Shown in pieces: positions 49,342 through 50,002 of a DNA stretch of 64,000 nt. The DNA is from Escherichia coli O157:H7 (GTDB taxonomy: Bacteria; Pseudomonadota; Gammaproteobacteria; Enterobacterales; Enterobacteriaceae). The stretch is taken from NCBI RefSeq assembly GCF_013167455.1, contig NZ_CP038328.1; one strand, written 5' to 3'. The translations under genes and the position numbers were made by a program. Each line of letters opens with the position of its first letter. The first letter of the stretch is position 1. The notes below the pieces were generated by a model. The model searched no databases and had not been told where the DNA came from. It saw only the letters and a program-made list of their open reading frames with translations.

Positions 49342-49354
49342 GCCGAAATTTGCT

Positions 49355-49405
49355 CGTATCTACAATGTAGATTGATATATACTGTATCTACATATGATAG
49401 TGGTT
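49355..49405 (+). promoter_or_regulatory. mazEF promoter/operator with palindromic elements
   Basis: Near-perfect palindrome ATCTACAATGTAGAT (49358-49372) and related TATCTACATATGATAG (49385-49400) immediately upstream of mazE. Confidence 0.5.
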
Positions 49406-49418
49406 TGAGGAAAGGGTT

Positions 49419-49667
49419 ATGATCCACAGTAGCGTAAAGCGTTGGGGAAATTCACCGGCGGTGCGGATCCCGGCTACGTTAATGCAGGCGCTCAATCTGA
49501 ATATTGATGATGAAGTGAAGATTGACCTGGTGGATGGCAAATTAATTATTGAGCCAGTGCGTAAAGAGCCCGTATTTACGCTTGCTGAACTGGTCAACGA
49601 CATCACGCCGGAAAACCTCCACGAGAATATCGACTGGGGAGAGCCGAAAGATAAGGAAGTCTGGTAA
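49419..49667 (+). CDS. mazE: Antitoxin MazE
   Basis: 82-aa ORF recognised as MazE; stop overlaps mazF start. Confidence 0.95.
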
Positions 49668-50002
49668 TGGTAAGCCGATACGTACCCGATATGGGCGATC
49701 TGATTTGGGTTGATTTTGACCCGACAAAAGGTAGCGAGCAAGCCGGACATCGTCCGGCTGTTGTCCTGAGTCCGTTCATGTACAACAACAAAACAGGTAT
49801 GTGTCTGTGTGTTCCTTGTACAACGCAATCAAAAGGATATCCGTTCGAAGTTGTTTTATCCGGTCAGGAACGTGATGGCGTAGCGTTAGCTGATCAGGTA
49901 AAAAGTATCGCCTGGCGGGCAAGAGGAGCAACGAAGAAAGGAACGGTTGCCCCAGAGGAATTACAACTCATTAAAGCCAAAATTAACGTACTGATTGGGT
50001 AG
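49667..50002 (+). CDS. mazF: Toxin MazF (ACA-specific mRNA interferase)
   Basis: 111-aa ORF recognised as MazF. Confidence 0.95.
   Translation: MVSRYVPDMGDLIWVDFDPTKGSEQAGHRPAVVLSPFMYNNKTGMCLCVPCTTQSKGYPFEVVLSGQERDGVALADQVKSIAWRARGATKKGTVAPEELQLIKAKINVLIG

Follow-up and report, generated by a model that had tools for sequence, protein, structure and literature searches.

The 64,000-nt stretch of Escherichia coli O157:H7 DNA analysed here (assembly GCF_013167455.1, contig NZ_CP038328.1; hereafter the window) carries, as we can state with very high confidence, an intact chromosomal mazEF (chpA) type II toxin-antitoxin module at its usual site in the relA-mazE-mazF-mazG operon. The finding as such is already known, mazEF being a textbook pair and among the most studied toxin-antitoxin loci. 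Its biochemistry, with ACA cleavage by MazF, block of the toxin by MazE and repression of the operon, is settled, while its physiological role is disputed.

Layout and identity of the mazEF locus

An earlier note on this DNA had placed a MazE/MazF pair directly downstream of relA, between relA and mazG, and its coordinates proved exact: positions 49342-50002 extend from the first base after relA to the end of the mazF stop codon (Table 1). The order of the transcription unit is relA-mazE-mazF-mazG, with relA as the upstream and mazG as the downstream gene. The relA gene ends with the stop codon TAG, and its product shows the HD_4, RelA_SpoT, TGS and ACT domains (Pfam). The antitoxin gene lies directly upstream of the gene for the toxin, the two being on the plus strand, and the TAA of mazE shares one nucleotide with the ATG of mazF; mazE and mazF are translationally coupled through this TAATG overlap. 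A scan of the plus strand revealed no terminator-like site in the relA-mazE or the mazF-mazG spacer, and the predicted fold of the latter is no more stable than those of shuffled sequences (z = -0.21).

Table 1. Coordinates of the mazEF locus and of other features in the window.
Feature	Position	Strand	Evidence or remark
relA (GTP diphosphokinase)	47107..49341	+	NCBIfam NF008124, 1678 bits
relA-mazE spacer, 77 nt, 35% GC	49342..49418	+	sequence GAGGAAAGGG
MazE operator site c, GTATCTACAATGTAGATTG	49356..49374	.	holds the palindrome ATCTACA-A-TGTAGAT
MazE operator site a, TTGATATATACTGT	49372..49385	.	core palindrome ATATAT at 49375-49380
MazE operator site b, ATATACTGTATCTACATAT	49377..49395	.	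third alternating-palindrome arm ATCTACAT
mazE, antitoxin, 82 aa	49419..49667	+	PF04014, NF007312, identity to PDB and K-12
mazF, toxin, 111 aa	49667..50002	+	PF02452, NF007386, identity to PDB and K-12
aMEF antisense RNA	49308..49707	-	transferred from K-12 RefSeq ameF b4844 (2911051-2911450), no indels
mazF-mazG spacer, 70 nt	50003..50072	+	right edge of the mazEF indel at ~50020-50032
mazG (nucleoside triphosphate pyrophosphohydrolase)	50073..50864	+	TIGR00444, 419 bits; PF03819, E = 1.6e-39
recC (partial), ptrA, recB, recD	1-10122	+	
three tandem tRNA-Met genes	13077-13370	-	Rfam
ES036, short match	14798-14840	+	Rfam
GcvB sRNA	17856-18061	-	Rfam; divergent from gcvA
CsrB sRNA	36242-36601	+	Rfam; between syd and yqcC

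That this is a known arrangement, as the earlier note had held, agrees with the identical gene order in K-12 and with our megablast search, in which DNA 100% identical to positions 49000-50300 was found in many O157:H7-type genomes and is labelled relA, mazE, mazF and mazG by RefSeq. The locus is a correctly read landmark, which shows that the window belongs to a chromosome of the E. coli O157:H7 type. Between bases 1-59260 of the window and the reference O157 genome NZ_CP022689.1 there are 4 SNPs. The sole indel with respect to that genome is a T7 versus T8 run at 59254-59260; it lies in the queE-ygcE stretch (58603-59664), which is about 1 kb long, AT-rich and devoid of annotated features.

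Searches with the MazE and PemK/MazF profiles placed both proteins above the curated cut-offs. MazE matched PF04014 (MazE_antitoxin) with E = 3.5e-14 and 52.9 bits at a cut-off of 24.7, and MazF matched PF02452 (PemK_toxin) with E = 5.9e-24 and 84.8 bits at a cut-off of 23.1. The corresponding NCBIfam equivalog models extend over residues 1-82 of 82 in MazE (NF007312; 196.2 bits vs a cut-off of 113) and residues 1-111 of 111 in MazF (NF007386; 227.4 bits vs a cut-off of 120). Further, MazF is 100% identical to PDB entry 3nfc_A over all 111 residues, with 1ub4 and 5ck9 also matching, and MazE has 100% identity to 1mvf_D and 1ub4_C; the complex structure of MazE with MazF is represented by 1ub4. 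E24, R29 and T52, which we take to be the residues needed for RNA cleavage by E. coli MazF, are present in the MazF translation. MazE binds DNA with an AbrB-type domain at its N terminus and MazF with a disordered, acidic C-terminal tail, and it contains K7, R8 and R16, the residues described as its DNA anchors (PMC4333400).

The operator and promoter region

The spacer between relA and mazE harbours the mazEF promoter region, the MazE/MazF operator and the ribosome-binding site of mazE. Three palindrome arms are found here, ATCTACA at 49358-64, TGTAGAT at 49366-72 and ATCTACA(T) at 49386-93, of which the middle one can pair with either outer arm; in the literature these operator arms of mazEF are called the "alternating palindrome". 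In addition, there is an 8-nt inverted repeat at 49365-72 and 49386-93. When the spacer was shuffled 5000 times with preservation of its dinucleotides, the 8-nt inverted repeat alone was recovered in 209 shuffles, and a triple consisting of a 7-mer, its reverse complement and the same 7-mer again in only 2. The operator palindrome is non-random. The palindromic operator claimed earlier is upheld by the rarity of the triple and by the predicted sites c, a and b, which correspond with zero mismatches to the published MazE-binding oligonucleotides (PMC4333400). A consensus scan further revealed the promoter-like hexamers TTGATA-18-GATAGT at 49372-49401, a candidate promoter which overlaps the operator sites.

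On the opposite strand, annotation transfer from K-12 places the antisense RNA aMEF, which spans from the 5' end of mazF through mazE and the operator to the 3' end of relA. The aMEF promoter was described as non-canonical and located inside mazF, and aMEF as a stimulator of MazE and MazF expression (PMC8749433). In our consensus scan no canonical minus-strand promoter for aMEF was found inside mazF, in agreement with the non-canonical nature described by these authors.

Comparison with the K-12 locus

The mazEF locus of K-12 (chpA; b2783/b2782) has the same gene order and the same 1-nt TAATG overlap. RelA, MazE, MazF and MazG are without amino-acid differences from their counterparts in K-12 MG1655, and the operator sites c, a and b of K-12 are identical to those of the O157 copy. 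At the DNA level, positions 49342-50072 differ from K-12 at 9 nt, 4 of which are in mazF (all synonymous), 1 at 49401 and 4 in the mazF-mazG spacer. One of the synonymous exchanges, ACA to ACG at 49945, leaves the O157 mazF with 8 ACA sites vs 9 in K-12. Position 49401, six bases 3' of operator site b, is T in O157 vs C in K-12. A functional difference between the O157 and the K-12 mazEF is not expected.

The divergence from K-12 amounts to 9/731 nt (1.2%) in the cassette, 44/2235 (2.0%) in relA and 11/792 (1.4%) in mazG. Since cassette and flanks have diverged to a similar extent, the cassette is old; in this lineage it has been passed on vertically and was not mobile in recent times.

Two alleles at the relA-mazG junction

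To describe the distribution of the module we used 5426 complete E. coli genomes, in which the cassette (49342-50072) was counted as present at a coverage of at least 80%. It is present in 4415 of them (81%), and all matches are chromosomal. An "empty" junction, in which relA and mazG are 95 nt apart, was found in 1007 genomes, and neither allele in the remaining 4. The mazEF locus is a clean two-allele polymorphism in complete E. coli genomes. According to the alignment, the difference between the alleles begins on the left with the base that follows the relA stop codon and ends on the right at about 50020-50032. RelA has the same protein accession in cassette-bearing and cassette-free genomes.

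The existence of strains which are devoid of mazEF and have the relA-mazG operon left undisturbed was mentioned before (PMC7167474), and thus our count is a quantification, not a discovery. It puts figures on a polymorphism that the literature treats qualitatively, and could be useful for the comparison of mazEF-positive and mazEF-negative lineages.

In the empty allele, represented here by E. coli FCI1 (locus 2948-3042), a hairpin with a 12-bp stem (GCTGGATATGGC...GCCGTATCCAGC) is followed by a second stem. The predicted fold has -34.9 kcal/mol (z = -4.4 vs shuffles), and the hairpin looks like a REP element or a terminator. Based on these observations one could speculate that the mazEF cassette replaced this hairpin and thereby rewired mazG, which would be under MazE/MazF autoregulation in mazEF-positive strains, O157 among them, and coupled to relA in a different manner in mazEF-negative lineages. 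We consider such a rewiring improbable; if true, the two alleles would have different (p)ppGpp dynamics. In a smaller variant of this idea, the lost ACA site and the T/C exchange at 49401, which is close to the promoter, might alter the set point of autoregulation in O157.

The GC content of the cassette is 46%, as compared to 51-54% in its flanks, and MazF homologues with about 72% identity are encoded on plasmids of several enterobacterial genera. Both the low GC content and the plasmid homologues fit an originally mobile cassette. Among the plasmid sequences there is also a 4.8-Mb E. coli record, NZ_OL790696.1, containing a mazF with 98% identity; this record is almost certainly chromosomal and wrongly labelled, and not a case of plasmid-borne mazEF.

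Defence-related content and other features of the window

All 49 annotated proteins of the window were scanned with PADLOC (PADLOC-DB v2). MazF matched no PADLOC family at E ≤ 0.001 and MazE none at E ≤ 1e-5. As neither protein matches a PADLOC-DB model, the designation of the module as "defence-like" rests on the literature on phage P1 and RNA phages; the PADLOC result concerns its classification only. The view that the window holds no toxin-antitoxin or defence-like module besides mazEF finds broad support, as no other toxin-antitoxin and no complete defence system was found with PADLOC and Rfam. A caveat to this statement is recBCD, whose product is a nuclease recognised as having an anti-phage role.

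Strong PADLOC matches of RecB (GajB, RTasHel) and RecD (PDC-S68, RecD-like) are due to shared helicase domains and do not indicate a system. The same applies to the matches of CsdA (SspA, DndA), TcdA (E1-E2), RlmD (mad2), the synthetase domain of RelA (PDC-S33) and the HTH of FucR (WYL), all of which were attributed to paralogy of housekeeping domains. At the Rfam gathering thresholds, no type I toxin-antitoxin RNA was detected in the window; the only hits were CsrB, GcvB, the three tRNA-Met genes and ES036. CsrB is located 6 kb from barA, the gene for its upstream sensor kinase.

Two other loci of the window deserve a brief description. The eno-queE interval (54175-57776, minus strand) encodes three TPM-domain proteins and one LemA-family protein, none of which was matched by a PADLOC model. 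In K-12, just ygcG, encoding one TPM-domain protein, and the small yqcG are found at this place, and we regard it as a variable region. The gene gudX (40011-41351, plus strand) has an in-frame stop at codon 74 and is a pseudogene, in agreement with the RefSeq annotation of a matching O157 genome.

Proposed mechanism of the module

The steps of the mechanism are taken from published work on proteins of identical sequence. MazF cuts at ACA in single-stranded RNA, is kept inactive as part of a MazF2-MazE2-MazF2 complex, and breaks down its own mRNA, again at ACA sites (PMC5888573). MazE, a labile protein, is degraded by ClpAP and Lon, while MazF is stable (PMC5888573; PMC1626106). The N-terminal domain of MazE binds the operator with an affinity that is raised by MazF at a ratio near 1:1 and lowered by MazF in excess (PMC4333400), and mazG was assigned to the mazEF operon (PMC1626106).

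Transferred to the locus described here, a MazE dimer would occupy sites c, a and b with its N-terminal AbrB-type domain and repress the promoter; binding to the operator would probably be strengthened by MazF at about equimolar amounts and weakened when the toxin is in excess. The C-terminal tail of MazE would bind and block the MazF dimer, leading to the MazF2-MazE2-MazF2 complex. Upon a stop of synthesis or loss of MazE, the freed MazF, predicted to act as a ribosome-independent endoribonuclease, should cut single-stranded RNA at ACA, with mRNAs, rRNA precursors and its own message as likely targets. This cleavage would arrest translation and growth until new MazE is made. In addition, aMEF and the cleavage of the own message by MazF may fine-tune expression.

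Biological role of mazEF

Several benefits for the cell were proposed for mazEF, namely stress-induced growth arrest, programmed death and abortive infection, along with self-maintenance of a mobile cassette, and the matter is not settled. Death triggered by ppGpp, reversible growth arrest, persistence and specialised ribosomes were each claimed and each disputed (PMC7167474). We favour the reading that mazEF is a cassette which was once mobile and is largely dispensable, its effect against phages or under stress being modest.

Alternatively, the cassette could be purely selfish and addictive, bringing no benefit to the host and being kept because its loss releases stable MazF. We view this as a possible explanation that falls short of an even chance. 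The presence/absence polymorphism, the GC content below that of the flanks and the plasmid-borne homologues are in line with it, as is the argument of a review that the function of toxin-antitoxin pairs is linked with mobility and that relA-mazG works fully when the pair is missing (PMC7167474). However, the module is intact and conserved at the same site in 4415 genomes. MazE and MazF are identical in O157 and K-12 even though the DNA has diverged by 1-2%. This suggests purifying selection, but the same pattern could arise from addiction alone.

A main selected role in abortive infection or anti-phage defence, in which MazF would shut down or kill infected cells or cut phage RNA directly and so limit the spread of the phage, seems to us rather unlikely, but has published reports on its side. 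Deletion of mazEF is reported to raise the yield of phage P1 (PMC1626106; PMC7167474), and native mazEF to give moderate protection against RNA phages, the genomes of which are depleted in ACA (PMC12151602). The patchy spread of the cassette, with 81% of the genomes being positive, is also typical of accessory defence genes. On the other hand, the published effects are called moderate, MazE and MazF do not match any PADLOC model, and mazEF is not part of a defence island, since its neighbours are housekeeping genes.

A further model is that of programmed death coupled to the stringent response (PMC1626106): ppGpp made by RelA would stop mazEF transcription, MazE would decay, and MazF would kill some of the cells, to the advantage of the others. 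The location in the relA operon, together with mazG, which encodes a nucleotide pyrophosphohydrolase, suits this model. Still, ppGpp-independent activation and effects that are bacteriostatic and not lethal were reported, and the deletion of five toxin-antitoxin systems caused no fitness defect (reviewed in PMC7167474). Moreover, in 1007 of the 5426 genomes relA is followed directly by mazG, with a RelA of the same accession as in strains bearing the cassette. A main role in such coupled death is therefore, in our opinion, quite improbable. The same counts bear on the link between the stringent-response gene neighbourhood and an mRNA interferase which the earlier note had drawn: the link is positional, through the operon which the pair shares with relA, and is not an established functional one, given the frequent relA-mazG junctions; the pair was also described as having no demonstrated functional link to the flanking cistrons (review, PMC7167474).

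Finally, that the O157 copy is decayed or inactive, be it as a pseudogene or as an orphan toxin or antitoxin, is practically ruled out by the two intact frames, the 100% identity of both proteins to K-12, the exclusively synonymous changes in mazF and the identical operator sites, and neither the lost ACA site nor the T instead of C at 49401 counts as support for it. In summary, the dispensable, once-mobile cassette of modest effect remains our preferred reading.

Relation to other toxin-antitoxin systems

The second MazEF-like pair of E. coli, chpBS (ChpB/ChpS), belongs to the same Pfam families as mazEF. The NCBIfam models for ChpB and ChpS gave weak scores with MazF and MazE, 55 and 35 bits vs cut-offs of 129 and 101. 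As these scores are far below the equivalog cut-offs, the pair described here is not chpBS, and the chpBS cut-offs were reached by no protein scanned in the window.

MazEF-like pairs are also present on enterobacterial plasmids (from Pantoea, Rahnella, Pectobacteriaceae, Citrobacter and Providencia), and their full-length MazF homologues show the approximately 72% identity mentioned above. They have an adjacent gene annotated as AbrB/MazE/SpoVT antitoxin and differ from the module in the window in not being located between relA and mazG.

The plasmid systems parD (Kis/Kid) and pemIK of R1/R100 share the toxin fold and family with mazEF, the structure of Kid (1m1f) being matched by MazF with E = 7.6e-9. 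They also share the layout, with the antitoxin gene in the first position and autoregulation via a palindromic operator. They differ from mazEF in that their sequences are distant, in that they are plasmid-borne and in that they act in post-segregational killing. Moreover, Kid/PemK prefers UA(A/C) as the cleavage site, unlike MazF, which cleaves at ACA.
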